Notes: generated by a model from the sequence alone, not told the origin. A stretch of DNA of 64,000 nt from Patescibacteria group bacterium (GCA_041665145.1 JBAYJK010000003.1:69177-133176), one strand, 5' to 3'. Counted from the first letter of the stretch, positions 42,617-61,362 are shown. Numbers and translations: made by a program.

Positions 42617-42655
42617 ACTGAAATTATATCACTAGTCCGAATCCAGGTTGGTGGA
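42617..42655 (-). repeat. Family-2 repeat with promoter cassette, copy D
   Basis: The minus strand reads ccaccaaCCtGGATTCGGACTAGTGATATAATttcagtATG (deaminase start). Confidence 0.8.
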
Positions 42656-42668
42656 ACCTCATATAAAG

Positions 42669-43343
42669 CTATATGGTTTCAGAAGCTAAGAAGTTCTCTA
42701 TTTCTTTCATTACCATATCACAATCTTTTTGTGAAAATCTAAAATTATGCTCCATATTTTCTCCCCTAACCACGAAAGGATTATTCGCACTTGCAACAAT
42801 TTTTTCTGTTTCTTCCTGCGAAATCTGTTTATCTGCCAATGCAATTAAGATCATAATCGGCTTATGCAATTCTTTAACTTCTTTTAAAGCAGAATACTGA
42901 AGTCCGTCCTCTACAAAAGTATAGGGTATTTCAAAATCTCTTATTTCTTGGGTATTTTCAGGTAAATCGCGTTTGGAATGTTTTGGAGCTTTCCCATTCC
43001 ATTTCTTTGCTAAATTCGAGATATCAACCGGAGAGCACAGCGAAACTACTTTTGTTACAGATGCAATTCTATTTCCTGCAATAATTGAAACGAGTCCTCC
43101 CAAGCTATGACCGATGAGTATTACTTCATTTGGTTGCGGAGGCTGATAAAATAAGACTCTCTCCTCAACTTGTTTAAGATAGTTGGTCGTAGAGTAATCC
43201 TTTGTGTTTCCTGTAGCCCAAAGGTTGCACGGATCAATTCTTTCCACAGTGTATCCAAGTTCAATAAGTCTTTTTTCAAACGTTTTGAAGTGAAGATAAT
43301 CTGGCGAGTCCAAGAAGCCAGGAAGCAATAAAGCAAGTTTCAT
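42669..43343 (-). CDS. alpha/beta hydrolase
   Basis: LLPGFLDS and nucleophile elbow GHSLGG. Confidence 0.75.
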   Translation of the reverse strand: MKLALLLPGFLDSPDYLHFKTFEKRLIELGYTVERIDPCNLWATGNTKDYSTTNYLKQVEERVLFYQPPQPNEVILIGHSLGGLVSIIAGNRIASVTKVVSLCSPVDISNLAKKWNGKAPKHSKRDLPENTQEIRDFEIPYTFVEDGLQYSALKEVKELHKPIMILIALADKQISQEETEKIVASANNPFVVRGENMEHNFRFSQKDCDMVMKEIENFLASETI

Positions 43344-43369
43344 ATCTGAAAATTATATCACGAAGAATA

Positions 43370-43421
43370 GTGCTGTGGAAGTAACGGACGTGGACCAGGA
43401 GGGCCTTATAGTGGTGTCTCA
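43370..43421 (+). repeat. Family-1 junction repeat, copy E
   Basis: GTGCTGtGGaAGTAACGGAcGTGGACCaGgAgGGCCTTATAgtGGTGTCTCA. Confidence 0.85.
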
Positions 43422-43439
43422 TATTTTAAGCTCAATTGA

Positions 43440-44417
43440 TTACTTCGTACGAAGTAGCATCAATATTAGTCCAATTGTTCTATCTCTATCTTTAGGAGTA
43501 CTTTCGGAGACAAGTATTGTTAACGCTGTTAGGGCTTCTGGAGTCAATTTTTGAGTATTTAATATATTGGTCTTTTTTAGAAACCAAACAAATACAAAAG
43601 CACCGCTTCTTTTATTTCCGTCCACAAATGGGTGACCTTTAACAATAAGATATAGAAGATTAGCTGCTTTTTCCTCTGCTGTAGGGTACAACTCTTTTCC
43701 ATTGAATGTTTGAAACACAGTTCTAACAATCCCAGTTAGTCTTCCTTCTTCTTTCTCGCGACCGAAAAGGAGACCTGCTTCTTTATCTCCAATTAACTCT
43801 TCCTTTAGATTTACAATTAACTTACTGACTTGGCTGGCTGTAAGCTCAAAAACACTTTTAATCTTACCGGATTTAGGAAGAGAGTCTTTATCGTAGGTAT
43901 CAAGAGAAAGCCATGTTGATGCAAAAGTTTTTATTAACTCAAGTGTGTTTTGTGTAGAAATCTGACTCTCTGGCAGTAACTCCTGCACTTCGTTAAGCAC
44001 CTTAAGGAAAGTGTTATAATTTTTTTCTAAAATTCTTCTGTTGAGAGTGTAACCCTTTATAATATGTTGCTTGAGTGTCTTTGTTGCCCATTGACGGAAT
44101 CTTGTAGCATTTATTGAGTTTACTCGATAACCAATAGAAAGAACAAGGTCCAAGTTATAATACTCAACTTTCCTCAAGATTTTTCTTGTTCCTTCAGTCT
44201 GAACTGTTTCCAAAACGGAAACAGTTGACTCTCTCTCAAGCTCACGAGTTGTAAAAATATTCTTAACATGTTTTGAGATAGCTCCTTTTTGTACGTTAAA
44301 AAGTTGAGCTACTTGCATCTGAGTAAGCAAAATCGTTTCATTAACAGCATCAAGCTGTACCTCTACTGCGCCGTTTTGAGCCTGATAGACCATAATTTGT
44401 TTACTTTCTTTTTCCAT
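43440..44417 (-). CDS. RhuM-like N-terminal domain fused to a Fic/Doc domain
   Basis: YYNLDLVLSIGYRVNS..RFRQWAT (RhuM pattern) and the C-terminal Fic/Doc motif GHPFVDGNKRSGAF. Confidence 0.8.
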   Translation of the reverse strand: MEKESKQIMVYQAQNGAVEVQLDAVNETILLTQMQVAQLFNVQKGAISKHVKNIFTTRELERESTVSVLETVQTEGTRKILRKVEYYNLDLVLSIGYRVNSINATRFRQWATKTLKQHIIKGYTLNRRILEKNYNTFLKVLNEVQELLPESQISTQNTLELIKTFASTWLSLDTYDKDSLPKSGKIKSVFELTASQVSKLIVNLKEELIGDKEAGLLFGREKEEGRLTGIVRTVFQTFNGKELYPTAEEKAANLLYLIVKGHPFVDGNKRSGAFVFVWFLKKTNILNTQKLTPEALTALTILVSESTPKDRDRTIGLILMLLRTK

Positions 44418-44502
44418 GTTTCAAAGTATAACAAAAAAGTGCTCAATCTAGATTAAGCAGTGTAGTTACAGGGATATAATCTGAGCTTACTTCTGAGTTT
44501 GT

Positions 44503-44545
44503 TGTGAGTAACGGATGCGAACCCGGAAGTTCTTATAGTGTTATA
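44503..44545 (+). repeat. Family-1 junction repeat, copy F (most diverged)
   Basis: tgtGAGTAACGGATGcGaACCcGgAaGttCTTATAGtGttata. Confidence 0.7.
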
Positions 44546-44607
44546 GATACAAGCATAACTAAGTAGATTTTTTAAATCCCCGATGAAGTCTTTAGTATAA
44601 TGTGACT

Positions 44608-45258
44608 ATGAAATTGCTATTAACTTCAGCAGGATTAACAAATCCATCAATTAGCCACGCAGCAGAAGAGCTGTTAGGCCAACCGGCTGAAGGAGTAAAG
44701 CTTGCTTTTATCCCGACTGCCGCCAACGTTGAGCCCGGTGACAAAAGTTGGATGATTCAAGACCTGAATAATTTTCAAAACGCAGGTTTTGAAGTAGATA
44801 TTGTTGATATCTCAGCGGTTTCAAAGGATACATGGTTGCCAAGACTGCTGGAATCTAAAATCTTGTTTTTGGGAGGTGGAAATACATTTCATCTGATGCA
44901 CTGGGTTCAAAAGTCAGGTTTACAGGAAGAACTTCCCTCTTTACTGAAAACGAGAGTATATGCCGGTATTAGTGCCGGAAGTTGCATTACGGGGCCTACC
45001 GTTTACAATTCAGTGCAAAACCTATTTGGTGAGAAATATGATCTTCAAATAAAAGCTGGTTTGGGTTTGGTTGGATTCCAATTTATTCCCCATCTGAACT
45101 CGGCATATTTTGACAAGATTCGGGAAGTAAACTTGCGAGAGGCATCTAAGAATCTTAAAGAGCCAGTATATGCTTTAGATGATAACTCTGCACTCAAGAT
45201 TACCGATGATAAGGTGGAAATAATTAGTGAGGGAGAGTATTTGTTATTCAATGCCTGA
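44608..45258 (+). CDS. S51 peptidase (dipeptidase E-like)
   Basis: FIPTAA, GGGNTFHL, GISAGS. The ATG at 44608 is preferred over the GTG at 44602 because TATAAT 44596-44601 lies 6 nt upstream. Confidence 0.75.
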   Translation: MKLLLTSAGLTNPSISHAAEELLGQPAEGVKLAFIPTAANVEPGDKSWMIQDLNNFQNAGFEVDIVDISAVSKDTWLPRLLESKILFLGGGNTFHLMHWVQKSGLQEELPSLLKTRVYAGISAGSCITGPTVYNSVQNLFGEKYDLQIKAGLGLVGFQFIPHLNSAYFDKIREVNLREASKNLKEPVYALDDNSALKITDDKVEIISEGEYLLFNA

Positions 45259-45275
45259 GTCAGTTGCAGTTTGAA

Positions 45276-45328
45276 ATTGTTGTGTCGTTATAACTCTTTC
45301 TACAAGACCAGTGCTGGGTTTTGCTGAT
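45276..45328 (+). repeat. Family-4 repeat, copy G
   Basis: GTCGTTATAActctttcTACAaGACcAGTGCTGGGTTTTGcTGAT. Confidence 0.8.
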
Positions 45329-45330
45329 AA

Positions 45331-45351
45331 AGTTGGAAAATTTTACCAACT
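45331..45351. terminator. hairpin AGTTGG-aaaatttta-CCAACT between convergent genes
   Basis: A 6-bp stem with an A/T loop, abutting the stop of the 45353 gene. Confidence 0.45.
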
Positions 45352-45352
45352 A

Positions 45353-46117
45353 TTATACTAAGCAAGTTCCGATCAACTCTACTATCCTGACAATATTTTT
45401 ATCTATGTCACCATCTCTCATAAAGGCGTGTGGAATTTGCTCATCTTCGATGTATGAACCTTTATTTTTGTCTGGAGTAAAATCAAAAAAAGATTTAACC
45501 ATTAACGTACTCAACCTCGGAAAATAACCAAATTTATCTGAACCCCTGTCAGCAACTGGTAGATACCCGTTCGGTCCATGGTTTCTCAGAAAAGAGTGAA
45601 TCACATCAATTATTACTGAAGAAGAAATTTTTGCTAACTTTTGGCTTATAGTCTCCTTGTTTGGATTATAACTTTCAAATCCGCTCCATGTTTTGGGATT
45701 TAAGCTTTGAGCTTCAGTAATATAATAATCTGCAGGATCTATAAAAACCACTTTCGAGATAAAAGGATCAAATTGTTTATCTAACAGCGCCTCAGTTGTG
45801 CTATACGCACCCATGCTTGTACATAAAATAGCTATTGATGAAAACTTAAGCATAGATTTAGAATACTGCAATATCTCTAGGAGATCCGAAGTTTGTTGGT
45901 TTAGTGTCGGTTGTTTGTTTTCTTCGACGCCGCTGAAGGAAAAAGTGACAACTGGTCTGTTTGTTCGTTTTTGCAGTTCAAGTACTAAAGCGTTAAAAGT
46001 ATTTCTCGTATCTCCACTTCCTCCGACGAATATAACTGCCTCGTTGCTACCACTTAATGGGAAGTAGTTCAGCGAAATAGGTCGCCCTGTAATTCTAGAA
46101 AGTGTCAGTTCTTGCAT
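45353..46117 (-). CDS. alpha/beta-hydrolase-fold protein
   Basis: VIFVGGSGD, elbow-like CTSMGA, and C-terminal PHAF. Confidence 0.55.
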   Translation of the reverse strand: MQELTLSRITGRPISLNYFPLSGSNEAVIFVGGSGDTRNTFNALVLELQKRTNRPVVTFSFSGVEENKQPTLNQQTSDLLEILQYSKSMLKFSSIAILCTSMGAYSTTEALLDKQFDPFISKVVFIDPADYYITEAQSLNPKTWSGFESYNPNKETISQKLAKISSSVIIDVIHSFLRNHGPNGYLPVADRGSDKFGYFPRLSTLMVKSFFDFTPDKNKGSYIEDEQIPHAFMRDGDIDKNIVRIVELIGTCLV

Positions 46118-46181
46118 AGCTAAATTATACTAAAGTCCGAATCCTAGTTGGGTACTGTTGTTACAGGGATATACTGTAAGG
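46118..46181 (-). repeat. Family-2/3 repeat with promoter, copy H
   Basis: The plus strand reads AGTCCGAATCCtaGTTGggtactgTTGTTACAgGGaTAtactGTAAG preceded by the -10 box of the 46117 gene. Confidence 0.8.
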
Positions 46182-46212
46182 CTAAATTTCTTGACAGGGA
46201 TTAGTTGAAAAT

Positions 46213-46282
46213 GGTAGCTAGTCTCGTGTTCAAGTACTGCACAAAACAGTTCTTTTCCTACTTGCTCTCCCCATAAGCTACC
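46213..46282 (-). terminator. 70-nt nested-helix element directly after the stop of the 46289 gene
   Basis: Outer 7-bp stem GGTAGCT/AGCTACC and inner 6-bp stem CAAGTA/TACTTG. On the minus strand it is followed by ATTTT. Confidence 0.4.
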
Positions 46283-46288
46283 GAAATA

Positions 46289-46930
46289 CTATTTAAGATA
46301 TCCTATTTTGTAAGCAAATATTGTTCCTAATACACCTAACGCAGCACTTACTGTAGCTGTTACTAAATTAACGATAATCTGGTCTCCATTTCTCTTAAGA
46401 AAACCCTTCACGTCGTGCCTTTTTGACAAAACTATTTCACTGTGTTTAAACAATCTAATATAAAACACCCAAACCGTCCAGGCTAAGAACAGACAATAGA
46501 AATATAAAACAATCTGAGATATTACTCCATGTAATAATAGCCTGAAGACGAAAAAGCCAATATATCCGACCCATAAAGTGTAATCAGAGTATAGAAAACT
46601 TGGCTTTCGAGTGGTTGTCAAAATTATTCTGTCTAATTTGTAGAACAATCCTGCCCCAAGGTTATTATTTGATCCTACGTATAATCTGGTCCATAATTTA
46701 TGCAGCTCTAAAGTCACGTACGGAGAACTTGAAGAAATTTTAAGATCAGTAATTGACTCATTTTCGTACTTCTTACATAGCTCTTTTACATTTGAGAATT
46801 CCAAACTCTTAGACACAATCTTATATCCGCTTTTTTCGACCAACAATAATTCCTCTATGGCCTCAAGTTGATCTACAAAGACTCTTATTGGTGAATATTT
46901 TCTTAGAAGTGGCTCATTAATTCTTTTCAT
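46289..46930 (-). CDS. hypothetical membrane protein (soluble N-domain + 3-4 TM)
   Basis: 213 aa. It overlaps the upstream gene by ATGA (46927-46930). Confidence 0.6.
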   Translation of the reverse strand: MKRINEPLLRKYSPIRVFVDQLEAIEELLLVEKSGYKIVSKSLEFSNVKELCKKYENESITDLKISSSSPYVTLELHKLWTRLYVGSNNNLGAGLFYKLDRIILTTTRKPSFLYSDYTLWVGYIGFFVFRLLLHGVISQIVLYFYCLFLAWTVWVFYIRLFKHSEIVLSKRHDVKGFLKRNGDQIIVNLVTATVSAALGVLGTIFAYKIGYLK

Positions 46931-47460
46931 TTTTCTTGGCTTACTTTCGTGCCATCAGAAAAAATTGCCTCTAACTTAGTAAAAACATCTGTTGGGTGCT
47001 GATCTTTTTGATCAAAAGAAAGCCTTTTTATTTCTGGTTCAACAAAAATTTGCGTTTTCTCTTTTTTCCCTTTTTCACCAGCATAGACGACAAGACGCAA
47101 ACCAGTTTTTGATTCCATGAGTCTTGAAACAACAAAAAACCTATTGTCTTTCGAAGATACTTTGCTTTCAGCAATAGGAGTTGCTTCGTTATCAATATTA
47201 ATAAAATGCATTGTTTTATAGGTCCTAGAGTTTATCTCCTTTAAGATAAATTGTTTCTCATAGTATACAAATCTAGGAATGGAATATATTTTATTACATT
47301 TCTCACATTGCAACTTCTTACTTGTATATTCGTTATCCGTATAATCGTCTAAATGTAGGTCTAATTCAATATAGTCCCTTGGACACAAGGGAACAGCTCT
47401 CGCGGGGCGCTGCCCTATGATCCACCTTACCCCATCGACAATAAAACCTACTTTTAACAT
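46927..47460 (-). CDS. hypothetical protein with a Zn-ribbon-like CPxx...CxxC
   Basis: 177 aa with LCPRDY...CEKCNK. It is translationally coupled to 46289-46930. Confidence 0.6.
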   Translation of the reverse strand: MLKVGFIVDGVRWIIGQRPARAVPLCPRDYIELDLHLDDYTDNEYTSKKLQCEKCNKIYSIPRFVYYEKQFILKEINSRTYKTMHFINIDNEATPIAESKVSSKDNRFFVVSRLMESKTGLRLVVYAGEKGKKEKTQIFVEPEIKRLSFDQKDQHPTDVFTKLEAIFSDGTKVSQEK

Positions 47461-47461
47461 T

Positions 47462-47513
47462 GTGCTGGGAGTAACGGATGTGGACCTGAAAGGCCTTATA
47501 ACGGTGTCTCACC
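47462..47513 (+). repeat. Family-1 junction repeat, copy I (island boundary)
   Basis: GTGCTGGGAGTAACGGATGTGGACCtGaAaGGCCTTATAacGGTGTCTCAcc. Confidence 0.85.
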
Positions 47514-47561
47514 TTTGAGGCTAAATGGGACATTTGGTACAGTATAAAAAGAAACAACTCA

Positions 47562-47578
47562 TCTTCATAAAATCTTAA
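47562..47578 (+). promoter_or_regulatory. Direct repeat TCTTCA-N5-TCTTAA (island RR box 1)
   Basis: 11-bp phasing, 12 nt upstream of TAGTAT (47591-47596), which is 6 nt from the ATG at 47603. Confidence 0.55.
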
Positions 47579-47602
47579 TTCATGTGGTTGTAGTATTTGA
47601 CT

Positions 47603-47863
47603 ATGTTTTATAAGAAAGAGATAGTTAAACAGCTAAACCTTTCTCAGCATACTGTTACAGATGTTATCAATGAACTTCCATCCGATTACGACTGGAAATT
47701 TCTCTGTCAGAAGATTGAGCTTGCGATAGTTAAACTTAACCGAGCTTCAGAACTGCTACGAATATACCATCTCGAGGTTTGTACCCTGAATAAACAAGAT
47801 AGAACAAAAACCACTTTAGGTTCTCAGACTATCAGTGAAGTTATGAAAGCATATAAATTTTAG
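47603..47863 (+). CDS. small protein with a possible HTH (86 aa)
   Basis: KQLNLSQHTVTDVI looks HTH-like. The ATG at 47603 is preferred over the TTG at 47597. Confidence 0.45.
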   Translation: MFYKKEIVKQLNLSQHTVTDVINELPSDYDWKFLCQKIELAIVKLNRASELLRIYHLEVCTLNKQDRTKTTLGSQTISEVMKAYKF

Positions 47864-47876
47864 CAAGAAGATAAAT

Positions 47877-48371
47877 ATGAGCTCAAAAGTTATAATTACT
47901 CTTTGCGTTTTCTTCGGCGTAATGCTCGGACTTGTTTTCTTTATAACAACTGGTCAAAAGCCGGATCTGGCGTCTATTGTATATTCCGCTCAAGATACTA
48001 ATCGGCCCAAAGTTGAGGCAAATAGCGTATTCAAAAACCTTGGGGAAATCAGCGTGTCCGATGTGAAAAAGCAGGACTTTTCTTTCAAAAATACAGGCAC
48101 CAAGCCTCTTCAGATTCTCGGAATTAGTTCGAGCTGCGGCTGTACAACAGGTCAGCTAATTTACAAAGGTACAACTACAAAACCATACAGTATGCATGCC
48201 CAAAGCGGATTCATTACTAACATAGCGCCAGGTGAAAGTGCCATAGTTCGCCTCGTATACCGCCCCGCGACTATGCCTGTGTACGGTCTCGTTGAGCGCG
48301 AAGTGTATGTAACGACAAACGATCCTCTTAATCAGAAATTGGTGTTTAGCATTAAAGCAAAGGTGAGGTAA
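47877..48371 (+). CDS. DUF1573-domain protein, membrane-anchored
   Basis: N-terminal TM, FKNTGTKPLQI and SSSCGCTTG. Confidence 0.75.
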   Translation: MSSKVIITLCVFFGVMLGLVFFITTGQKPDLASIVYSAQDTNRPKVEANSVFKNLGEISVSDVKKQDFSFKNTGTKPLQILGISSSCGCTTGQLIYKGTTTKPYSMHAQSGFITNIAPGESAIVRLVYRPATMPVYGLVEREVYVTTNDPLNQKLVFSIKAKVR

Positions 48372-48373
48372 AA

Positions 48374-49201
48374 ATGGATTCAAACTTTTTATTTGGCGTC
48401 TCATTGACAGCATCATTTCTCGCGGGAGTACTGGCACTATTTGCCCCGTGTTGTATAACATTTCTGTTCCCTTCATATCTTGGAACAATCTTCAAGGACG
48501 GCAAAAAGGTTATGTATTATACGTTTATCTTTGCGTTCGGCCTGGCCTTCGTCCTAGTTCCGATAGCACTTGGAATTAGGGCTGCTATATTCTTTCTCGA
48601 CACATACCATACACAAGTTTACTATCTCGGTGCGTTGGTTATGATTCTGATGGGTTTTTTAACACTTAAACCCGTACTCCATCTACCTCAGATATTTCAT
48701 GTCTCTAGCCCCCATGGAAAAAAAATTAACACAGGAACGGTTTTTGGATTAGGTCTTATGTCTGGACTAACTTCTGCCTGTTGCGCTCCAGTACTCTTTG
48801 CCGCTGTTACACTTACATCGCTGTCCCCCTCACTTTTACAGGCTTTTATCGTCTCAGCAGCATATATTGTCGGTATCGTCATGCCTTTGTTTATCATGTC
48901 AATGTTTTACGAAAAGGCAACTTCTCGGGTAACAGGAGCAAACAGACAGAAAATTTATCGGATTTTGAAGTTTGCGGGAGCCGCTTTATTTTTTCTTGCA
49001 GGTATACTGATAGCTTTATTCAATTTTTTTGGAAAAATACAGATGAACCAGATGGAACCATACAGCCAAAAAATTAGACTTATTTTTTTTGAAATTTCGA
49101 AATACTTCCAGAATCCGATAATCGACCTGGTAGTTTTTGGGATAGTTCTGCTTGCTTTTTACAAGTTACTACGTTATAAAGGCCATGAAAAAGAAGAATA
49201 A
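48374..49201 (+). CDS. DsbD/CcdA-family (DsbD_2) membrane thiol-disulfide transporter-like protein
   Basis: 6 TM, with LFAPCC in TM1 and TSACCAPV in TM4. Confidence 0.7.
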   Translation: MDSNFLFGVSLTASFLAGVLALFAPCCITFLFPSYLGTIFKDGKKVMYYTFIFAFGLAFVLVPIALGIRAAIFFLDTYHTQVYYLGALVMILMGFLTLKPVLHLPQIFHVSSPHGKKINTGTVFGLGLMSGLTSACCAPVLFAAVTLTSLSPSLLQAFIVSAAYIVGIVMPLFIMSMFYEKATSRVTGANRQKIYRILKFAGAALFFLAGILIALFNFFGKIQMNQMEPYSQKIRLIFFEISKYFQNPIIDLVVFGIVLLAFYKLLRYKGHEKEE

Positions 49202-50123
49202 TCTTTTGCCGGTAGTTATGGTTAGTGTTACTTTTAACGCGATTTTGGCTGCCATACTCATTACTCCCCGCGTCATAAGTTTAAAATCGACCCTTTTTAA
49301 ACCACAGGTATCTCCATCGACAAAAACTGTGGTAACCACCAAAAACAACTTGTTTGATCAAATTAACCCGGTTGCGGGGTATGAAATAAATGCATTGTAT
49401 AGAGATCTTGGCCCGAAACTTATAGCTTCGGGGGCAATAGATCGAGAGAAATTTCAAAGCACATATGAAAGATCTAGCCAACCGATGACAACAGAACAGA
49501 AACAAATTTTATTTAAAGGATCGAGCAAAAGAATAAAAGTAACCAGGGAAAACTCGTACTTTCTTCTTAATTTTTTCTGGGCTGTAGGGCTTGCCAATAA
49601 ATCTAAAATTCTCGACGAAGGAGATATGGTGAAATATGGCGGTAAAAGTGGTGCGGGCAATTTTGCCTCTACCGGAGGGTGGAGTTTGGCAAAAAGTGAG
49701 GCAATGAATTACTATTCAAAGTCGGAACTTATTTCGTTGACTGCAGAACAAGAAGCTCTCGTCGCTCTGGTAGCATCAAATATTTTCAGGCCTTGTTGTG
49801 ACAACTCAACGGCATTCCCGGACTGCAACCATGGGATGGCTTTATTGGGAGTCCTGCAACTTATGGCAGCAAACGGTGCAACTGAAAAAGACATGTATGA
49901 AGCGTCGAAATACTTCAACGCTTTTTGGTTCCCGGGAAACTATTATGATCTTGCATTATATTTTCAAAACAAGGAGGGAAAATCATTTAAAGATGTAGAT
50001 GCAAAGATCTTATTAAGTAAAGATTTCTCATCTGCAACTGCATCTCAAAATATTAAGCAATGGCTTGCTAATAAAGGATTAGTCCAGCAACCACCGAAAC
50101 AAGGTGGCGGATGCGGAGTATAA
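49185..50123 (+). CDS. membrane-anchored hypothetical protein with a PCCDNSTAFPDCNHG motif and a C-terminal GGGCGV
   Basis: 313 aa with an N-terminal TM. The start is at MKKKNN (49185), overlapping the previous gene by 17 nt. Confidence 0.6.
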   Translation: MKKKNNLLPVVMVSVTFNAILAAILITPRVISLKSTLFKPQVSPSTKTVVTTKNNLFDQINPVAGYEINALYRDLGPKLIASGAIDREKFQSTYERSSQPMTTEQKQILFKGSSKRIKVTRENSYFLLNFFWAVGLANKSKILDEGDMVKYGGKSGAGNFASTGGWSLAKSEAMNYYSKSELISLTAEQEALVALVASNIFRPCCDNSTAFPDCNHGMALLGVLQLMAANGATEKDMYEASKYFNAFWFPGNYYDLALYFQNKEGKSFKDVDAKILLSKDFSSATASQNIKQWLANKGLVQQPPKQGGGCGV

Positions 50124-50130
50124 TGCTCTT

Positions 50131-50799
50131 ATGAGGATTCTGATCGTCGAGGATGAACAAAGACTTTCTAATATTGTTCGAAAAGGATTCATTGAGGATG
50201 GTTTTGCTGTAGACCAAGCATTCGACGGTGAAGAGGGACAATACCTTGCTGAAAGTGAAGAGTATGATCTTATTGTGTTGGATATTGCATTACCTAAAGT
50301 CGATGGACTAACTCTCTGTAAAGAACTTCGTAATAAACAAATAAGAACCCCCGTTCTAATTTTAACCGCAAAGTCGAAAACGGAAGATAAAATAGCAGGG
50401 CTTGACTCAGGAGCTGACGACTATATGACAAAACCATTTTCTTTTGCTGAATTTCGCTCCCGTGTACACGCTCTTATCAGAAGAAGCCATCAAAATTCAT
50501 CCCCTGTTTTGGAAATTGAAGGTCTGGAGGTTGATCCATTGAAGCATATTGTGAAGAGAGACAGCAGGACAATAAGTTTGACTCCAAAGGAGTTTGCAAT
50601 TTTAGAGCTATTGATGAGGCATAAGGGTGAAGTGGTAAGCAGAACTATGATTACAGAGCATGTCTGGGATTATAATTTCGAGGGAATGAGTAACGTTGTT
50701 GATGTTTTCGTTACCACATTACGAAAGAAAATTAATCGGGGGTCAAAACACAAGCTCATACAAACGATTCATGGAGTCGGTTATAAGGTTGGAAGCTAA
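50131..50799 (+). CDS. OmpR-family response regulator (CopR/CusR-like by context)
   Basis: MRILIVEDE, LDIALPKVDG, TAK, HGVGYK. TATAAT 50119-50124 lies 6 nt upstream of the ATG. Confidence 0.9.
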   Translation: MRILIVEDEQRLSNIVRKGFIEDGFAVDQAFDGEEGQYLAESEEYDLIVLDIALPKVDGLTLCKELRNKQIRTPVLILTAKSKTEDKIAGLDSGADDYMTKPFSFAEFRSRVHALIRRSHQNSSPVLEIEGLEVDPLKHIVKRDSRTISLTPKEFAILELLMRHKGEVVSRTMITEHVWDYNFEGMSNVVDVFVTTLRKKINRGSKHKLIQTIHGVGYKVGS

Positions 50800-50800
50800 T

Positions 50801-52204
50801 ATGAATACCAAAAGCATACGATTCCGCATAATCTTCTGGTTCAGTCTGGCAATGTTTCTTGCGGCTGCATTTATTTTTTCCAGTTTTTATCTGGTAACAA
50901 CAAGGATACTTTTCAAACAAGTAGATAGCGAACTTTTGACACACGCGACTAAGTTATCACAGATCGTGACACGACAGGGTGTTAGTCTGCATGAGGTATT
51001 ATTGCAACAACAATTATTCACCGAATTCAGCAATATTCCGGGTATGGTTGTAGCCTTACTGGATGAAAATGGTATTGCTGTTAGCAGCTCGCTAAGTATG
51101 GATAGGCCATACGTTTCATATAACTATCTTTTCCAGCTAGCTCGGGGTTCCGCAAAACCAGTCTACTTAAACCAGGAAATTAGCAATGTACCTATGAGAT
51201 TCATTGCCCAGCCAATCAGAAGCGGATCGGATCTTGTAGGTATTGTACTCGTTGCACACCCTATTGATGCTATCCAGAAGTCTCTCAATACTCTTCTTAC
51301 GACCCTCGCGATACTGCTGGGGCTGCTCGTAATTCCAACGGTTCTCGGCGGATTAGTCCTCGCCGGAAAAATCATGCAACCCATATCTCATATAACCAAT
51401 AAAATTGACAAGATAAGTTCCGAACATCTTGAAGAGAGGGTGGATACATCCCGAACAGGGGATGAAATGGAAAAGCTTGGGGTTACCTTTAACAGTCTTC
51501 TAGATCGTCTTCAGGATTCGTTTCAACGGGAACGACAGTTCATCGGTGATGTTGCACATGAATTGAAGACCCCGGTTGCAACTCTTAAGAGCGGAATTGA
51601 ACTCGCGCTTTTAAAAAACAGGACAAACGATGAATACAGACAATTCTTCAAGGAAACTCTTATTGATGTCAATAGATTATCTACAACAATCAAAAATATT
51701 CTTGATCTTGCTTGGCTCGGGGCGGAGAGCTCACAAATTTCTGAGAACAGTTTTAATTTGTCGGTAACGCTTACCGAATTAAGCGAGATTGCAACAAAAC
51801 TAGCAGCTCAAAAACGTATAAGCATAAGAAACAATATTAGGCAAAATATATTTGTTATTGGAGTAGAAGACAAAATAACCAGAGCAATACTCAACATTAT
51901 TGATAACGCGATCAAATACACTCCAGTGGATAAAACTGTCAGTATTACTTTGCACAAAAGAGGCGGTAGCGCTATCCTTGAAATAACTGATACCGGTATC
52001 GGTATTTCGGAAAAAGAGATAGATCATATCTTCGAACGTTTTTATCGTGGCGCAAAAACTGCAAAAACATTAGGCTCAGGTCTCGGACTTGCCATTGCGC
52101 AGGGTATTATAAAAGCCCATCGCGGTGAAATTGATGTGACTAGTAAAGTCGGCAAAGGAACCACAGTTTCTATTACCTTGCCTATCAAAGGCATTCTATC
52201 ATAA
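50801..52204 (+). CDS. sensor histidine kinase (CopS/CusS-like by context)
   Basis: Two TM segments flanking a periplasmic-type domain, HAMP, H-box AHELKTPV, DNAIKYT, DTGIGI and GSGLGLAI. Confidence 0.9.
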   Translation: MNTKSIRFRIIFWFSLAMFLAAAFIFSSFYLVTTRILFKQVDSELLTHATKLSQIVTRQGVSLHEVLLQQQLFTEFSNIPGMVVALLDENGIAVSSSLSMDRPYVSYNYLFQLARGSAKPVYLNQEISNVPMRFIAQPIRSGSDLVGIVLVAHPIDAIQKSLNTLLTTLAILLGLLVIPTVLGGLVLAGKIMQPISHITNKIDKISSEHLEERVDTSRTGDEMEKLGVTFNSLLDRLQDSFQRERQFIGDVAHELKTPVATLKSGIELALLKNRTNDEYRQFFKETLIDVNRLSTTIKNILDLAWLGAESSQISENSFNLSVTLTELSEIATKLAAQKRISIRNNIRQNIFVIGVEDKITRAILNIIDNAIKYTPVDKTVSITLHKRGGSAILEITDTGIGISEKEIDHIFERFYRGAKTAKTLGSGLGLAIAQGIIKAHRGEIDVTSKVGKGTTVSITLPIKGILS

Positions 52205-52481: not shown

Positions 52482-52521
52482 CTACGACAAAAAATAAACA
52501 CAAAAGTGTTACGATAAAAGC

Positions 52522-54663: not shown

Positions 54664-54689
54664 TTGCTGTCTTCAACGAAACTCTGAAA

Positions 54690-54706
54690 TCTTCATAAAA
54701 TCTTAA
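54690..54706 (+). promoter_or_regulatory. Direct repeat TCTTCA-N5-TCTTAA (island RR box 2)
   Basis: The 17-mer is identical to box 1. It lies 12 nt upstream of TATGCT (54719-54724), which is 7 nt from the ATG at 54732. An extra TCTTCA at 54669-54674 is 21 nt upstream. Confidence 0.55.
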
Positions 54707-54731
54707 CTGCCTGTCTTGTATGCTGTATTTT

Positions 54732-56579
54732 ATGAAAAAATGTAACATCAATATCAAAGGCATGCACTGCCGATCATGTGAATTGTTAATAGAAGACGAA
54801 TTACAAAAGGTACCCGGTATTGAACGGGTTTCAGTAAGCCACCAAACTGGGGTTGCCGAGTTATTCTACCGACACGGATTTAATGAACAGGCAGTTGCAC
54901 ATGCGATACAGAATGCCGGATACAGTATTGGGGTGAATGAAAAACCTCATATTTTTTCTCGGAACCACTGGGATTATGTTGATGTAGGAATTGCTTTCTT
55001 CATGGTAATGACCGTGTTTCTCCTTGCAAAAACATTCGGATTATTCAATTTGGGAAGTTCAATTTCGGGAAGCTACTCAAGCTTACCCATTGTGTTCATT
55101 GTCGGTCTCACCGCGGGAGTATCAACATGTATGGCAATGGTGGGCGGGTTGGTGCTCGGCGCTGCTGCTCGGTTTTCCGCGCAAAATCCAAATGCCAGCG
55201 CTCTCGAGAAATTCAAACCACATCTATTTTTTAATCTTGGAAGAATCACGTCATACACAGTTTTGGGAGGTGTGGTAGGTTTTGCTGGATCTCTGTTTCA
55301 GCTTTCTACTTCAGTTCTGGGAATTTTGACTGTTACAGTGGGGCTTGTCATGTTGCTTCTCGGAGGCCAACTTATCGAGATATTCCCTGTTTTAAAGCGA
55401 ATATCGTTTACTTTACCCAAAGGGATTTCTCGTATACTTGGTATTAAGGAGCAGACTCAGTCTGAATACAGTGACAAAGGTGCTGCAATTATGGGGGCTT
55501 CGACTTTTTTTCTACCCTGTGGTTTCACTCAGGCAATGCAACTATTTGCCATGAGTACCGGCAGTCCCGTAACAGGCGCGTTAACCATGGGTGTTTTCGC
55601 ACTTGGTACGGCGCCTGGATTGCTCAGTGTTGGTGGTCTTACATCCGTAATTAAAGGTGAGGCTGCGAAGATGTTTTTCAAGGTTGCTGGTGTTGTAGTT
55701 GTTCTGCTCGCCCTATTTAATATTTCAAATGGCCTTAACTTACTCGGGATTGGCCCGAACGTTCTTGGAGCTTTCAATACAAAGGCTGCAACGAATACAA
55801 CAGCTACTGATTCAAATGTCACCATCGCTAATGGGGTTCAGGAAGTTCGGATGACGCAAGATTCTTCCGGTTACACGCCTAATAGCTTTACTATCAAAAA
55901 AGGTACTCCAGTGAAATGGATTGTTACTTCAACTGATGTTAATACCTGTGCAAGTAGCATTGTGTCACAGCAGTTAGGTGTGCGCCAAGCACTGCAGTTA
56001 GGTGAGAACATCATAAATTTTACTCCAACAGAAACCGGTACAATCCGCTTTTCATGCATGATGGGAATGTATAATGGATCGTTTAATGTAGTTGATGAGA
56101 CTGAGACGTCGGCTGTTCCTTCTGTACTTGCCGCAGATGCAACGCCAGCGGGGGTGAGTGCGTTACCACTGCCAAGCACTACGACCACCAATGCAAAGTC
56201 ATCATGTGGCGGTTCTGGTGGAGGTGGTTGTGGATGCGGCTCAAAGCGTGCAGTGCCTACTCCAAACCCTAGCCAACCTATCGCAGAAGCCGTTGTTGAG
56301 AATAATGTACAGGTAATTAAGGCCACGTACACAAGTCTCGGCGATATCTCGCCCAACTTTTTTATCGTTAAAGCAAATCAACCGGTACGTTTCGAAGTTG
56401 ACGCGCAGGATAACGGCGAAGGTTGTATGGGCAGCATCACAGTTCCCAACCTGACAAATAAGGTGGATATTCTCACCAAAGGACAAAAGACGATTTTTGA
56501 ATTTACACCCAGTACTCCGGGTAACTACAATATCACTTGCGGGATGGGAATTCCGAGAGGCCAAATACAAGTTATTTAG
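54732..56579 (+). CDS. HMA domain + TauE/SafE-like membrane domain + two cupredoxin-like domains
   Basis: N-terminal GMHCRSCE, 6-8 TM (FFLPCGFTQAMQLFA), a Cys/Gly linker SSCGGSGGGGCGCGS, and two beta domains ending FSCMMGMYNG and ITCGMGIPRG. Confidence 0.75.
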   Translation: MKKCNINIKGMHCRSCELLIEDELQKVPGIERVSVSHQTGVAELFYRHGFNEQAVAHAIQNAGYSIGVNEKPHIFSRNHWDYVDVGIAFFMVMTVFLLAKTFGLFNLGSSISGSYSSLPIVFIVGLTAGVSTCMAMVGGLVLGAAARFSAQNPNASALEKFKPHLFFNLGRITSYTVLGGVVGFAGSLFQLSTSVLGILTVTVGLVMLLLGGQLIEIFPVLKRISFTLPKGISRILGIKEQTQSEYSDKGAAIMGASTFFLPCGFTQAMQLFAMSTGSPVTGALTMGVFALGTAPGLLSVGGLTSVIKGEAAKMFFKVAGVVVVLLALFNISNGLNLLGIGPNVLGAFNTKAATNTTATDSNVTIANGVQEVRMTQDSSGYTPNSFTIKKGTPVKWIVTSTDVNTCASSIVSQQLGVRQALQLGENIINFTPTETGTIRFSCMMGMYNGSFNVVDETETSAVPSVLAADATPAGVSALPLPSTTTTNAKSSCGGSGGGGCGCGSKRAVPTPNPSQPIAEAVVENNVQVIKATYTSLGDISPNFFIVKANQPVRFEVDAQDNGEGCMGSITVPNLTNKVDILTKGQKTIFEFTPSTPGNYNITCGMGIPRGQIQVI

Positions 56580-56593
56580 TTATTAACAAAACT

Positions 56594-56797
56594 ATGCAAT
56601 CAATGAAACTAACCGGACTTACTTGCAACGCTTGCAAGAAAGTCTCAGAAAAAAGGATCGGAGCAATAAGCGGAGTTCAAAAAGTTGATGTTTCCGTTGA
56701 ATTGGGTGTAGCAGTCATAGATTCCGATAGGCTACTATCAGTATTAGAAGTTAACAAAGTGCTTCAAGACACACCTTATAAAGCACTCGAGAAATAG
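56594..56797 (+). CDS. small HMA-like metallochaperone (CopZ-like)
   Basis: 67 aa with [12 protein letters not shown]. The start is taken at MQSMKL. Confidence 0.65.
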
Positions 56798-56798
56798 T

Positions 56799-59700
56799 AT
56801 GAATAGAATAATTGATCTTAAAATTGAAGGAATGCATTGTCAGTCGTGCGAAATGTTAATCAAAGATGAGCTGTCTTCCCTTTCGGGTGTCAAAGACGTT
56901 AGTACTGACTATAAAACTGGCCGCGGAACAGTCACTTTAACCAATCGGGTTACTTCAGACGCGGCAATTCTTGACTCTGTAAAAAATGCAGGGTATGTGG
57001 CTTCTGTAATTACTTCCAATCATCTGAGTAACAACGTATCACAATTGCCACAAGAAAAGGGAACATTTGCTTTTTTGAATTTCCCAAAGGAAATAGGTCT
57101 TGAAGGAACAATCGGCAAGAATGCAGAAGGACAGGTGACCATTAAAGGTAAGTTACGATTTAATTCTAACGAAAGCGATGAACCTCACCAACTCGCTCAG
57201 CCGAATAACGTTGTCGAAAATAATACTTTTGCTGGTAAAACGGAACGAACTAGTTTGGTCATTATAGGAATGCATTGTTCCTCTTGTGCCGCAATTATTG
57301 AGAGACAGTTAAAAAAGGTGACTGGTGTATCAGAAGCAAAAGTTAATTTCGCTTCTGAAAAAGCATCTGTAGTTTACAATTCGGGCGTAACAAAGACAGA
57401 AGATTTAATAAAAGCAGTTGAAAAATCTGGATACAAAGCTGCTCCCGCTCATACTGAAGACTCACAAGCTCAAGCAAAACGCCAAACATCAGAAATAAAG
57501 CATCAATGGAACAGATTCATTATCAGCATGGTGTTGTCGTCCCCAATGATTTATTTCATGTTTCTTGATTTCTTTAATTTTCTACCGGGAACCAAGCTCA
57601 TACTTCCCTACATTGGAATCATATCGTTTGTATTAGCAACACCCGTACAATTCATCATTGGCTCCAACTTTTACAAAGGAATGATTTCCGCCTTAAAGAT
57701 GCGTACGTTTAACATGGATAGTTTAATAGCTATAGGGACATCCGTTGCCTATTTCTATAGCGCTGCTAACTTTATCCAATACTTTATAACCAACAATTCC
57801 TTAATTGGCCTTGCAGGAGCCAAAATTCCAGATTTGTACTTTGAAACTGCAGCATTCCTTATTACGTTTGTTATTCTAGGAAAATTCCTTGAAGCAAAAG
57901 CCAAAGGAAGGACATCTGAAGCGATTAAGAAACTCATGGGTTTGCAGGCAAAAACAGCACGAGTTATACGAAACGGAGAGACAGTTGATATTCCTGTTGA
58001 CCAGGTTATCAAAAACGATATTATCATGGTTCGACCCGGAGAAAAAGTCCCCGTAGATGGAACGATTACGAAAGGCTCCTCTTCTATCGACGAATCAATG
58101 ATAACCGGTGAGAGTCTTCCTGTTGAAAAACATGTTGAGGACACAGTTATCGGCGGCACAATAAATAAAGTCGGTAGCTTTGAGTTTATGGCAACACGAG
58201 TGGGGTCTGAAACTACGCTCGCCCAAATTATCCGCCTCGTTGAAGACGCACAGGGTTCTAAGGCACCCATTCAAGCTGTTGCCGATAAGATTTCTGCATA
58301 CTTTGTTCCGGGTGTAATAGCACTTGCCGTTTTGACATTTGTTGTCTGGTTTTTCTTTTTAGGGTCAACGCTTTCTTTCGCTCTAATGGCATTTACGGCA
58401 GTTATTGTTATTGCCTGTCCTTGTGCTCTGGGCCTTGCCACCCCGACAGCCATAATGGTTGGAACGGGAGTTGGGGCTGAACATGGCATCTTAATCAAAG
58501 GTGGCGAACCATTGGAAAGTGCAAGTAAAATAAATACGATTGTTTTCGACAAAACAGGAACTATCACAAAAGGAAAGCCCGAAGTAACTGATGTTGAAGA
58601 TGTTGGTTCGCTTGACGATAAAGAAGTGCTTGCTATTTCTGCAAGTCTTGAAAAGCAATCCGAACACCCCCTTGCTGAAGCAATATATTCTTACTCTCAA
58701 GAGGAAGGTGTGACTCTTAAAGAAGTTGAGAAGTTTAGTGCAATTCCAGGCCATGGCGTCAAAGGGACTATTGGAAACAAAGATTACTTTTTCGGAAATC
58801 GCAAGCTTATTACCGAAACGCTTGGTTTGGATATCGGTAAGTTTGAACGGAAGCTCGTACGACTCGAAGAACAGGGAAAAACAGCAATGATCCTATCTTC
58901 AAAAGACGAAGTGCTTGGACTGATTGCTGTTGCTGATACGATAAAAACCACTTCGAGAGAAGCTATTGAAAAACTCAAGAAGATGAAGATTGAAGTATGG
59001 ATGATCACAGGGGACAATACCCGTACGGCTAAGGCAATTGCTGCACAAGTCGGTATTGACAATGTCCTCGCCGAAGTCTTGCCTCAAGATAAGGCCAACG
59101 AAGTAAAAAAACTTCAGGAACAAGGTAAAAAAGTAGCGATGGTAGGAGACGGTATTAATGACGCACCGGCACTTGCACAAGCTGAACTTGGAATTGCAAT
59201 GGGTTCGGGAACTGATGTTGCCATGGAAGCCGGAGGAATCGTCATCATTAAGAATGATCTCAGAGATGTAGTTAATGCACTCGATCTTTCCAAGAGCGCC
59301 GTGCAAAAAATACAACAAAACATGTTCTTTGCTTTGTTCTATAACGTTATCGGCATTCCAATCGCTGCGCGTGTATTTATGTTCGCGGGCCTTGTGTTAA
59401 AGCCGGAACTTGCTGGTCTTGCGATGGCACTTAGTTCAGTTTCTGTAGTAAGCAACTCACTGCTTCTTCGGCGCTACCGTCCGGGAAAAAAGAACTATAT
59501 ATCTATGTTTGCACCGATTGTTATGATGATCGCTTTTACGTTACTGTTTATCGAATTTGCACGGTTTAGTTCCACTATGGCTGCACCAAAGAAGATGGAT
59601 TCGAAAGTAACCAATTCTCGTGCAGTTAGTAATGTGGTAGAAATAAGCGCTCCCACTGGAGTTAAAAAACAGTTCTATATGGTAGGAAACAGTATTCCTA

Positions 59701-59948
59701 CAGAGTTATCAGGTCAGATACAAATGGAGGCATTCAATCCGGTATATATTGCAGGAAAGAAGTATAGTCCGATTTTTATAGGGTATGACGAGGCTCAGGT
59801 TATGATTGAGGAAAAACTATTTTCTAAACCGGGTGATACTATTAAGAACTTTTTTGGTAATGACATTATTGTCTCAGGCGTCTTAGTAAAGACTAATTCA
59901 GTTTTTGATACGTATCATTTTGTCAAGGAAGGGTTCCAATTAAGGTGA
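56799..59948 (+). CDS. copA: Cu+-type P1B ATPase with two N-terminal HMA domains and a ~150 aa C-terminal extension
   Basis: GMHCQSCE and [57 protein letters not shown], then an extra TM plus a soluble domain (59499-59945). Confidence 0.9.
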
Positions 59949-59978
59949 ATGAAATAAGTCTGCTATGAGGCCGATGTG

Positions 59979-60049
59979 CTGGGGGACGTGGATTCGGACC
60001 ACGATAAACAGCTCCAAAGGCTGCTGTCCTACCATTAGACGATCCCCCA
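59979..60049 (-). tRNA. tRNA-Gln (anticodon UUG), no encoded CCA
   Basis: The manual cloverleaf is TGGGGGA/TCCCCCA acceptor stem, GTCT/GGAC D stem, GCAGC-CTTTGGA-GCTGT anticodon arm, and CGTGG-TCCGAAT-CCACG T arm, with discriminator G. The 5' TGGGG.ATCG start resembles the bacterial tRNA-Gln I remember. Confidence 0.85.
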
Positions 60050-60126
60050 ATTGAACAGCAATATTCTAACATACAAATATTATCTTATAAAGGTAAATAA
60101 GATTAGACTAGTGATATACTTTAGTT

Positions 60127-60669
60127 ATGGCAAAGTACGATTTTAAGCCTTACTATTGTGAGTTTCCCAAGTTGTTTAAGGACGAACAACGTCGTCTTCG
60201 AAGTTTCCTTGGAAACAGCCCAGTAATTGAGCACTTCGGGAGCTCTGCTGTCCCTGGTCTTGGAGGAAAGGGGATCATCGATATTTTTGTTGCTGTTCCC
60301 AGAGATCAAATGAAATCGACGTCTGAGCTACTTCTAAAAGCAGGATACGGATATCGAGAAACTGGAGGTGACTCAGAACGATTGTTCCACCAACGTACTG
60401 TTTTGCATAGTGAGAATATCACTCAAATATACCATGTTCACGTTACTTTTCTTGAAAATGAGAATTTCAAGCAAGCAATTCTTTTTAGGAATTACTTACG
60501 AACACATGAGACTGATCGTCTTGAATATGCCCGAGTCAAAGAGATCGGTGCCAAGCTTGTAGAAGGTGTTGAAGACAAGAAATCGAAGAAAGAGCTCTAC
60601 ATGAAGGCTAAAGAGACTACGGTTGCAGCAATTCTTAAAAAAGCAATTGAAAGCAGTAAAAAATCCTGA
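60127..60669 (+). CDS. GrpB-family (UPF0157) nucleotidyltransferase-fold protein
   Basis: IEHFGSSAVPGLGGKGIIDI, HVHV, and FRNYLRTH. Confidence 0.8.
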   Translation: MAKYDFKPYYCEFPKLFKDEQRRLRSFLGNSPVIEHFGSSAVPGLGGKGIIDIFVAVPRDQMKSTSELLLKAGYGYRETGGDSERLFHQRTVLHSENITQIYHVHVTFLENENFKQAILFRNYLRTHETDRLEYARVKEIGAKLVEGVEDKKSKKELYMKAKETTVAAILKKAIESSKKS

Positions 60670-60672
60670 TTT

Positions 60673-61251
60673 TCACTTAAGTAAATTTAACTGCTTTCTT
60701 CTAATAATTAATAAAGTACTTTCAATAATATTGATTAATAAATTTGTTACCGGGTAAAGCCATGTGAGTAGGGAGTAATTTGCCAAAGCCAAAAGCCCCA
60801 AAAAGTTACGTACCGCACCCATCTTCCACGTAAAGAGTGTCTCGGAATGTGGATCTTTCCATGACTTTCGGATGGTGGGCAAGTTCGCAAGGGTGTTTAT
60901 GGTAACGATCAAAACGGTTGAGATAACCGGTTCTTTCGCGAAAATCCACACGCATGTTGCTATGAGTGCGATAATGAAAGTTATCGTATCAAACTTAGTT
61001 ATGTCTTTTTCTCCATTCTTGAGGCCTAAAATGTAAATGGTCAAGCAAAGAATAGCTGTGGCGAGGGTTGTATAGGCACCTGCACCACCTTTTCCTAAAA
61101 TCTGAAGCGCAAAAATGATAAAAGTTACAAATGCCCAGATAAACCAACTGTATATATGGGGTTTAGTTTTGCCTTTTACAGTATCCCAGATGTACGGAGC
61201 ATACCCAATGAAGGTTAAGATTACTGCTAGAGCCCCTAATACGTCTTTCAT
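60673..61251 (-). CDS. hypothetical 6-TM membrane protein
   Basis: 192 aa and hydrophobic. TATAAT lies 6 nt upstream of the ATG at 61251. Confidence 0.6.
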   Translation of the reverse strand: MKDVLGALAVILTFIGYAPYIWDTVKGKTKPHIYSWFIWAFVTFIIFALQILGKGGAGAYTTLATAILCLTIYILGLKNGEKDITKFDTITFIIALIATCVWIFAKEPVISTVLIVTINTLANLPTIRKSWKDPHSETLFTWKMGAVRNFLGLLALANYSLLTWLYPVTNLLINIIESTLLIIRRKQLNLLK

Positions 61252-61300
61252 GCGCTTATTATACTAAAAGCTATTCTCAGGAAGTACGAACGTTATTAGT

Positions 61301-61362
61301 CTTACTCGATACCCATGTAACAAGAACACAACCAGGATTCGGACTAGTGATATAATTTTATA
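61301..61362 (+). repeat. Family-2/3 repeat with promoter cassette, copy L (inverted relative to D and H)
   Basis: CTTACtcgaTAcCCaTGTAACAAgaacacaaCCaGGATTCGGACTAGTGATATAATtttataATG. 29 of 30 nt are identical to copy D across aaattatatcactagtccgaatccNggttg. Confidence 0.85.

Follow-up and report, generated by a model that had tools for sequence, protein, structure and literature searches.

Background

The reuse of promoters within prokaryotic genomes has been described under the name of "putative mobile promoters", for which the criterion was ≥80% identity over ≥50 nt within −150 to −50 of the start codon (Matus-Garcia, Nijveen, van Passel 2012; PMC3575422). Leaderless gene starts of group C have their Pribnow box at a distance of 6-8 nt from the start codon (PMC6028130). 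Here we analyzed a 64,000-nt stretch of DNA (GCA_041665145.1, JBAYJK010000003.1:69177-133176; henceforth the window) in which related promoter segments of 20 to 75 nt precede six accessory genes. The source is a metagenome-assembled genome (MAG) of an uncultivated member of the Patescibacteria, or Candidate Phyla Radiation (CPR), whose nearest named relatives are Candidatus Roizmanbacteria (Microgenomates). The deaminase encoded behind one of these segments is identical to WC775_00640 of a Patescibacteria group bacterium. Homologues of this protein and of a hydrolase encoded behind another segment come from Roizmanbacteria, Amesbacteria, Woesebacteria, WWE3 and similar groups. A preliminary description of the window, made from the sequence, had proposed a portable promoter cassette spread as a mobile promoter, as an element resembling a miniature inverted-repeat transposable element (MITE), or by recombination at a tRNA-derived site. 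What the data point to is a modest case of promoter reuse in front of six accessory genes, and no new mobile element.

Copies of the promoter segment

We searched for copies and performed self-comparisons in 82 kb of sequence, comprising the window and ~10 kb on each side. This resulted in two full and four partial copies:

Copy A, 42617..42650 (−): promoter of the deaminase gene (ATG 42614-42616), with TATAAT at 42623-42628, TG at −15/−14, ACTAG, GGATTCGGACT at 42634-42644 and CAACC at 42646-42650.
Copy B, 61293..61362 (+): promoter unit of the gene for a 101-aa membrane protein (ATG 61363), with TTAGTCTT at 61296-61303, the family-3-like ATACCCATGTAAC at 61309-61321, CAACC-A-GGATTCGGACTAGTGATATAAT at 61329-61356 and a 6-nt spacer.
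Copy C, 46118..46188 (−): promoter unit of the gene for a 254-aa alpha/beta hydrolase (ATG 46115-46117), with TATAAT at 46124-46129, AGGATTCGGACT at 46134-46145, the family-3 block ATATCCCTGTAAC at 46160-46172 and TTAGCC at 46181-46186.
Copy D, 40675..40694 (−): proximal module only, ACTAGTGATATAAT (40681-40694) and 6 nt, followed by the ATG of the HAD gene (start 40674); it begins directly 3′ of the stop codon of the GNAT gene.
Copy E, 60101..60126 (+): GATTAG-ACTAGTGATATACT (60107-60120) and 6 nt, followed by the GrpB gene (ATG 60127); GATTAG replaces GATTCGG, and the copy is back to back with the promoter of a tRNA-Gln gene.
Copy F, 44418..44478 (−): promoter unit of the Fic/RhuM gene (ATG 44415-44417), with TATACT at 44425-44430, a degenerate version of GGATTCGGACT that reads AGATTGAGCAC, and a perfect family-3 block ATATCCCTGTAAC at 44466-44478.

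All six copies lie within 40.7-46.2 kb and 60.1-61.4 kb, a span of 21 kb, and we found no further copies in the 10 kb on either side of the window. They are unequal in extent but always 6 nt from an ATG.

The most similar copies are A and B, which form the inverted 30-nt pair reported in the preliminary description. Positions 42621-42650 and 61358-61329 are identical at 29 of 30 sites (96.7%; E ~1e-6, self-BLAST), and a repeat finder returned the same inverted pair as 37 nt including the ATG. In both copies TATAAT lies 6 nt from the ATG, also as first described. The exact 22-mer GGATTCGGACTAGTGATATAAT is present at two sites only, 42623-42644 (−) and 61335-61356 (+), and 100 shuffles did not produce it once. 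The A/B pair is not an assembly artefact: contigs assembled independently from two further sequencing runs reproduce both copies with 100% identity.

The remaining copies share parts of this sequence. The ACTAG-type short version gave 4 matches at ≤2 mismatches, against 0.41 expected, and ACTAG lies 5′ of TGATATA(A/C)T in four promoters. Copies D and E retain only this proximal ACTAG-TGATATA(A/C)T; they are the shorter versions that had been noticed before the HAD and GrpB genes, and our searches recovered them at 40681-40694 (−) and, with one mismatch, at 60107-60120 (+). The variant noticed before the hydrolase gene starting at 46117 was also recovered (AGGATTCGGACT, 46134-46145, minus strand), as was the continuation into a conserved block termed family 3, with GTTACAGGGATAT at 46160-46172 and 44466-44478 and the diverged copy ATACCCATGTAAC at 61309-61321.

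These segments precede unrelated genes. In Pfam, the genes correspond to a cytidine/dCMP-type deaminase, a 101-aa membrane protein, an alpha/beta hydrolase, a Fic/RhuM protein, a HAD protein and a GrpB protein. As they fall into different Pfam families or into none, the genes behind the copies are not paralogues. The co-oriented pairs GNAT/HAD and hydrolase/deaminase are separated by gaps of 20-52 nt, which are filled by the promoter of the next gene.

The ordinary promoter and the similarity beyond it

We compared the copies with the promoters of the 44 operon-first genes in the window. A TAnnnT hexamer lies 5-8 nt 5′ of the start codon in 37 of these genes, and a Shine-Dalgarno motif is the sole signal in none of the 44. 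Shine-Dalgarno-like motifs are nearly absent even at operon-internal genes (2 out of 29). TATAAT-N6-ATG occurs 15 times in the window, spacers of 5-7 nt account for 23 occurrences out of a total of 67 TATAAT, and the histogram of spacers from TATAAT to ATG peaks at 6 nt. In a position matrix of the 44 promoters, information is found only at T(−3), G(−2) and the hexamer TAtAaT; all positions 5′ of this extended −10 element carry <0.25 bit, and no −35 consensus is detectable. A scan for canonical −35/−10 pairs returned no more sites than chance and missed copies A, B and C. Copies A and B have TATAAT with an extended TGn, and a −35 hexamer at 16-18 nt, as in a canonical sigma-70 promoter, is not recognizable. 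A promoter of the extracytoplasmic function (ECF) type, considered for the AAC at −35, was rejected, as the −10 box is a perfect TGnTATAAT.

The same pattern is found at gene starts outside the low-GC accessory part (2254, 4747, 9133, 12611, 27129, 27469, 27543 and 30858) and at core-type genes, for example ruvA in the left flank. The gene start at 41252 is a further example of this leaderless-type architecture. The mRNAs of operon-first genes thus appear to be leaderless, with TGnTATAAT 6 ± 1 nt before the ATG and no −35 consensus. On the geometry of these sites, transcription would start at or next to the ATG. We found no paper that describes a leaderless architecture in CPR in the literature searched. 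It follows that the proximal 9 nt and the 6-nt spacing are the normal promoter of this organism. The TGATATAAT core and its distance to the ATG are an ordinary promoter and not a property of a cassette.

The similarity of the copies extends beyond this core. The distal CAACC-N-GGATTCGGACTAG, 21 nt situated 5′ of TG, is identical at 20 of 21 positions between A and B, where the matrix shows no constraint. We also compared the upstream regions of the 44 promoters from −75 to −16, a range that excludes the −10 region. The scores of A/B (16), F/C (15), C/B (14) and A/C (12) exceed the 99.9th percentile of the null (11), and the null maximum is 13. Copies B and C align over ~70 nt, with a common TTAGYCTT box, family-3 block, CAAC, GGATTCGGACT and −10 box, and their similarity 5′ of the GGATTCGGAC block has p=0.001. 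A further ~40 nt, made of the ATATCCCTGTAAC block and the TTAGYCTT box, is common to B, C and F (genes starting at 61363, 46117 and 44417). The block shared by A and B ends sharply at −36 and at 2 nt past the −10 box.

The distal block and these ~40 nt are not generic, and the copies form a small mosaic family of homologous promoter segments. The claims of the preliminary description divide along this line. It had placed one promoter-bearing module before unrelated genes and had seen the motif only in the accessory part. Homologous DNA beyond the consensus does precede these genes, and the distal half is confined to the accessory part; the proximal half is generic, and its −10 box and spacing are found throughout the window. 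The concern raised in the same place, that the motif is simply the generic consensus of the organism, applies to the −10 box and spacing and not to the distal part.

Proposed promoter reuse by copying or gene conversion

We favor promoter reuse by copying or gene conversion, akin to the putative mobile promoters cited above, and assign this reading a probability of roughly 0.55. Recombination or short-patch gene conversion would have copied segments from one gene start to another or homogenized them, with the near-invariant edge formed by the −10 box and the ATG serving as one boundary of homology. For A and B, this would be a recent copying or conversion between promoters that were already related. 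The 29 of 30 identical positions in this pair include positions that differ in C, and the ends of the shared block are sharp; on these grounds recent copying is preferred over conservation of sites alone. At the DNA level, the segments would act as leaderless extended −10 promoters. A common factor may in addition recognize the block GGATTCGGACT (about −28 to −18) and ACTAGT, in which case the genes would be co-regulated.

Comparison with other genomes indicates that the segment does not belong to the genes that it precedes. Deaminase orthologues in three other CPR genomes (68-69% identity) and hydrolase homologues in two genomes (45-49% identity) have unrelated upstream regions, and one of these loci has a generic TGATATACT-N6-ATG promoter. 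Because five orthologue or homologue loci lack it, the segment was not inherited with the gene. The closest deaminase and hydrolase relatives are only 72% and 49% identical. The sharing of upstream DNA is wider in this genome, since an AT-rich segment of 54 nt, 94% identical, precedes both ruvA and a PDDEXK nuclease gene. Its two copies, at 4768-4821 in the window and ~6.4 kb to the left of the window, lie just 5′ of −10 boxes and contain ATTTGTG-like units. Further instances of such sharing are the 18-mer ATCTTCATAAAATCTTAA and the R2 repeat, both described below.

Four points weigh against this reading. The copy number refers to 82 kb and not to the whole genome, and the contig alone measures 480 kb in one assembly and up to 919 kb in another. 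All other assemblies are 100% identical, so no copying event has been caught. Purifying selection on binding sites would produce such a mosaic, in which perfect blocks of 11 nt and 13 nt stand between diverged flanks, just as well. Finally, simple promoter copying does not explain the identity of the distal block with a tRNA T-loop (p ~0.0015), nor the recurrence of tRNA-Gln near related loci, both of which are described below.

A shared operator as an alternative

The alternative that best survives is a regulon, which we regard as possible but unlikely. One or two transcription factors would bind the blocks and jointly control a set of small detoxification-type or accessory enzymes, with GGATTCGGACT in the spacer, ACTAGT beside the extended −10 element and ATATCCCTGTAAC at about −43 to −55, and the similarity of the blocks would be kept by selection. 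Conservation is indeed block-wise, with variable flanks. Counted in the 5′ direction from the ATG, the ATATCCCTGTAAC block lies at 42-55 nt in copies B and C and at 49-61 nt in F, positions that we count as fixed relative to the −10 box. The tetranucleotide CTAG is five-fold depleted in the 82 kb (64 observed versus 304 expected), yet it is present in every copy of the family, which is compatible with a protein-binding role or with a foreign origin. CCTAGG is absent from the 82 kb, and 5 of the 12 ACTAGT sites lie in intergenic repeats of the accessory region.

Another shared upstream sequence resembles a true operator. The 18-mer ATCTTCATAAAATCTTAA occurs at 47561-47578 and 54689-54706, just 5′ of the −10 boxes that serve the gene starts at 47603 and 54732. 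It is likely a response-regulator operator. Between the two operons lie an OmpR-type two-component system (50131-52204) and copper/P-type ATPase genes.

Several properties of the copies fit a regulon poorly. The 29/30 identity of A and B spans positions that vary in C, for which recent copying is the better fit. The blocks have no dyad symmetry except for the 6-bp ACTAGT, and the deaminase orthologues lack the site.

We also searched for the block in other genomes. A scan of a genome collection, to which the source genome does not belong, with the pattern GGATTCGGACT-N4-5-TATAAT returned 64 single matches. Most were in coding regions (GFGL-YN motif), and only the loci L003 and L059 had a CPR leaderless context. 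A metagenome scan in which ATG was added to the pattern returned 14 matches, of which 4 were CPR-like, and viral contigs gave chance matches only. The conservation of the block among the metagenome matches is no evidence, because the pattern itself required the block. Consistent with a regulon, the CPR contigs L003, L059/L077, L070 and L071 have the same 11-mer in front of leaderless accessory genes, with an unchanged offset. On the other hand, these matches were preselected for the exact block, and at ~2 per scan they are near a rough, uncomputed estimate of what chance would give in CPR leaderless promoters. The only comparison between the window and a foreign genome with extra similarity is that of copy A with the region upstream in L070 (p=0.0015, uncorrected for 28 tests).

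Of note, four metagenome contigs of higher GC (L069, L072, L073 and L079) share a distinct recurring element, CCATCGCCGG..GGTTTTAT-GGATTCGGAC-AAAGTTATAAT, which is unrelated to the CPR family. Two of these contigs carry a tRNA gene ~0.8 kb from the element.

The tRNA-Gln gene and the T-loop match

The preliminary description had noticed that the distal part of the segment is identical to the T-loop segment of a neighboring tRNA:

tRNA-Gln(UUG), 59978-60049 (−): genuine tRNA, 58.6 bits (Rfam).

The identity is real. The T-loop segment GTCCGAATCC at 59991-60000, which reads GGATTCGGAC on the plus strand, is identical to the distal block. Among 200,000 shuffled tRNAs, 305 shared a 10-mer with the 30-nt cassette (p ~0.0015). 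Over its 10-11 nt, the match runs antisense to the direction of the promoter. Nothing extends it towards a tRNA: at E≤1, Rfam detected the real tRNA-Gln only and no tRNA at any copy, and no partial copy of tRNA-Gln was found in the 82 kb with 3-5 mismatches allowed. The copies show neither a covariance-model match nor a repeat of the tRNA 3′ end of ≥15 nt, which we had taken as signs of tRNA homology beyond a short motif. The T-loop identity is statistically unusual but stands alone, and an origin of the segment from a tRNA is unsupported.

U55 (pseudouridine) is nearly universal in tRNA T-loops. The T-loop of the tRNA-Gln in the window, TCCGAAT, has C at position 55. The tRNA-Gln genes at L059 (583-654, minus strand) and L077 read TCCGACT and likewise have C55, and the tRNA-Gln at L082 (5615-5687, plus strand) has the canonical TTCGAAT.

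The tRNA-Gln gene recurs near related loci. In the window, 57 nt separate it from copy E and 1.3 kb from copy B. In L059/L077 (Roizmanbacteria), a near-identical tRNA-Gln is followed, at a distance of 49 nt on its downstream side, by GGATTCGGACT-TTTGA-TATAAT-N6-ATG. In L070, a contig of the same sample, a homologous unit of ~95 nt that starts from the last 4 nt of the tRNA precedes a different gene. At one of the three deaminase loci examined, L082 of another CPR genome (GCA_964476545.1, 5615-6477), no gene intervenes between tRNA-Gln and the deaminase orthologue downstream of it. Beyond the orthologue comes a series of uncharacterized genes, and the locus could be an insertion hotspot.

It is conceivable, although we consider it doubtful, that the GGATTCGGACT unit is a Microgenomates-wide portable promoter module tied to tRNA-Gln, behind which accessory genes would be exchanged with GTCCGAATCC as the recombination core. 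If so, it would represent a cassette-exchange system in CPR that operates without recognizable integron or transposon machinery.

Site-specific recombination in the window itself is improbable. In this case GTCCGAATCC, comprising the 7-nt T-loop and the stem edges, would be the crossover core of a tyrosine recombinase site. Secondary sites with this core would receive or exchange accessory genes, whose promoters would then retain the core. The identity to the unusual C55 T-loop of the same genome, the distances of E and B to tRNA-Gln, and the arrangements in L059/L077, L070 and L082 point in this direction. Against it, neither the window genes that were scanned with Pfam and NCBIfam nor the Pfam lists of the ±10 kb flanks contain an integrase, transposase, invertase or recombinase. 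The searches for tRNA matches at the copies and for a longer partial tRNA-Gln repeat were also negative. Neither the inverse orientation of A and C with respect to the tRNA nor the location of B on its 5′ side fits integration at a tRNA 3′ end, and the flanks of the core are not inverted-repeat arms. The proposal of recombination at a tRNA-derived site was not upheld.

Chance and mobile elements

A combination of generic promoter consensus and chance is very unlikely to account for the whole family. It is true that the proximal TGATATAAT-N6-ATG is generic and that the T-loop match is just 10 nt. The near-identity of the distal 21 nt of A and B at positions without constraint in the matrix, the absence of the 22-mer from the shuffles and the several pairs that score above the null maximum argue against it. 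This reading is refuted for A/B, B/C and C/F, and may hold for the T-loop match and the matches in foreign genomes.

We looked for the hallmarks of mobile elements at the copies. No unit folds better than its shuffles (z −1.2 to +1.5), there are no terminal or internal inverted repeats at the copies, and a direct reading of the flanks, as the preliminary description had advised, revealed no target-site duplications. A 7-nt ATTTAGC repeat surrounds copy C and is not common to A or B. A MITE identity is made very improbable by the lack of terminal inverted repeats, fold and target-site duplications together with the differing extents and the 6-nt lock to the ATG. The term mobile promoter can be kept in the loose sense of promoter reuse, and not as the name of a new mobile element.

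Three further candidates were rejected. An integron attC array does not fit, since the genes are on both strands, the repeats are upstream and not downstream, and both fold and integrase are lacking. In an inverted segmental duplication the order of repeats would be reversed, whereas A/B, the 63-nt pair and the R2 repeats (listed below) keep the same left-to-right order. A DNA inversion switch between A and B would leave the targets of both promoters unchanged after recombination in the 30-nt repeat, and no invertase gene was found.

A miniature transposable element (MITE, REP or Correia-like) with an outward-facing promoter is extremely unlikely: short repeats do precede unrelated genes and several other short intergenic repeat families exist in the region, but, beyond the missing hallmarks, the copies range from 20 to 75 nt while keeping 6 nt from the ATG, only two are full in 82 kb, no transposase was found and the viral contigs gave no relevant matches.

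Other repeats in the window

Two further intergenic repeats were detected in the accessory region:

R2 repeat (TATAAGGCC..GTCCACATCCGTTACTCCCAGCAC), 47463..47500 (−), 43373-43411 (−), 44500-44537 (−) and 63245-63282 (+): intergenic, separate from the cassette.
63-nt repeat, 45284..45346 versus 62510-62572, inverted: 84% identical, intergenic, in two accessory stretches; the copy at 62510-62572 has ACTAGT.

Each of the four R2 copies points to the downstream gene and has no significant fold. We rejected the possibility that R2 is a small open reading frame (ORF), since an indel between copies breaks the frame. Elsewhere, a tandem 8-nt unit, GTCT(A/G/C)A(A/G)(T/A), is repeated ~7 times at 3831-3886, between convergent glnA-like and PDDEXK genes. 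The GC-rich palindrome GGGCCGGGCATGCCCGGCCC, unusual at 42% GC, occurs at 10670-10693 and 10868-10891, ~200 nt apart, with one copy just outside and the other inside the ORF at 10707-11162. In the interval 40000-47700, a scan found no intrinsic-terminator-like hairpins, compared with 5.5 expected from shuffles.

Implications and comparison with known systems

If promoter-proximal copying is routine in a genome whose promoters abut the start codon, ~30 nt could suffice to wire incoming accessory genes for expression, which would be relevant to the uptake and expression of foreign genes in small CPR genomes. A methodological point follows from the generic promoter. Any two gene starts of a strongly leaderless genome have ~12 of 18 positions in common (TGnTATAAT-N6-ATG), and scans for shared cassettes must therefore first subtract this background. 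A near-universal leaderless architecture without a −35 element also matters for the calling of gene starts in CPR MAGs.

We compared the family with described systems. As with attachment (att) sites in tRNA genes, there is a short T-loop identity, a neighboring tRNA and a region rich in accessory genes. Here, however, the identity is only 10-11 nt, its orientation or side is wrong, a 3′-end repeat is lacking and no integrase gene was found. Correia, ERIC and REPIN elements are likewise short intergenic repeats able to supply promoters to their neighbors. Unlike the segments described here, which show none of these features, they are present in many copies, with terminal inverted repeats or hairpins and with target-site duplications.

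The promoter architecture resembles that of the leaderless group C (GeneMarkS-2, PMC6028130; Deinococcus-Thermus, PMC12340547) in the Pribnow box at 6-8 nt from operon-first starts and in the lack of a Shine-Dalgarno motif. It differs in its lineage, the Patescibacteria, in having no detectable −35 element, and in the fraction of genes concerned, 37 out of 44 compared with the 25-50% quoted for group C.

The closest counterpart is the putative mobile promoter (PMC3575422), with which the family shares closely similar upstream DNA before non-paralogous genes of one genome, no known mobile element and an unknown mode of movement. It falls short of the published thresholds: A and B share 30 nt at 97% identity from −36 to −5, and B and C share ~70 nt at well below 80%. 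The A/B block lies outside −150 to −50 because the promoter of a leaderless gene abuts the ATG. By the same standard, the 54-nt pair before ruvA and the PDDEXK nuclease gene would meet both the identity and the length thresholds.

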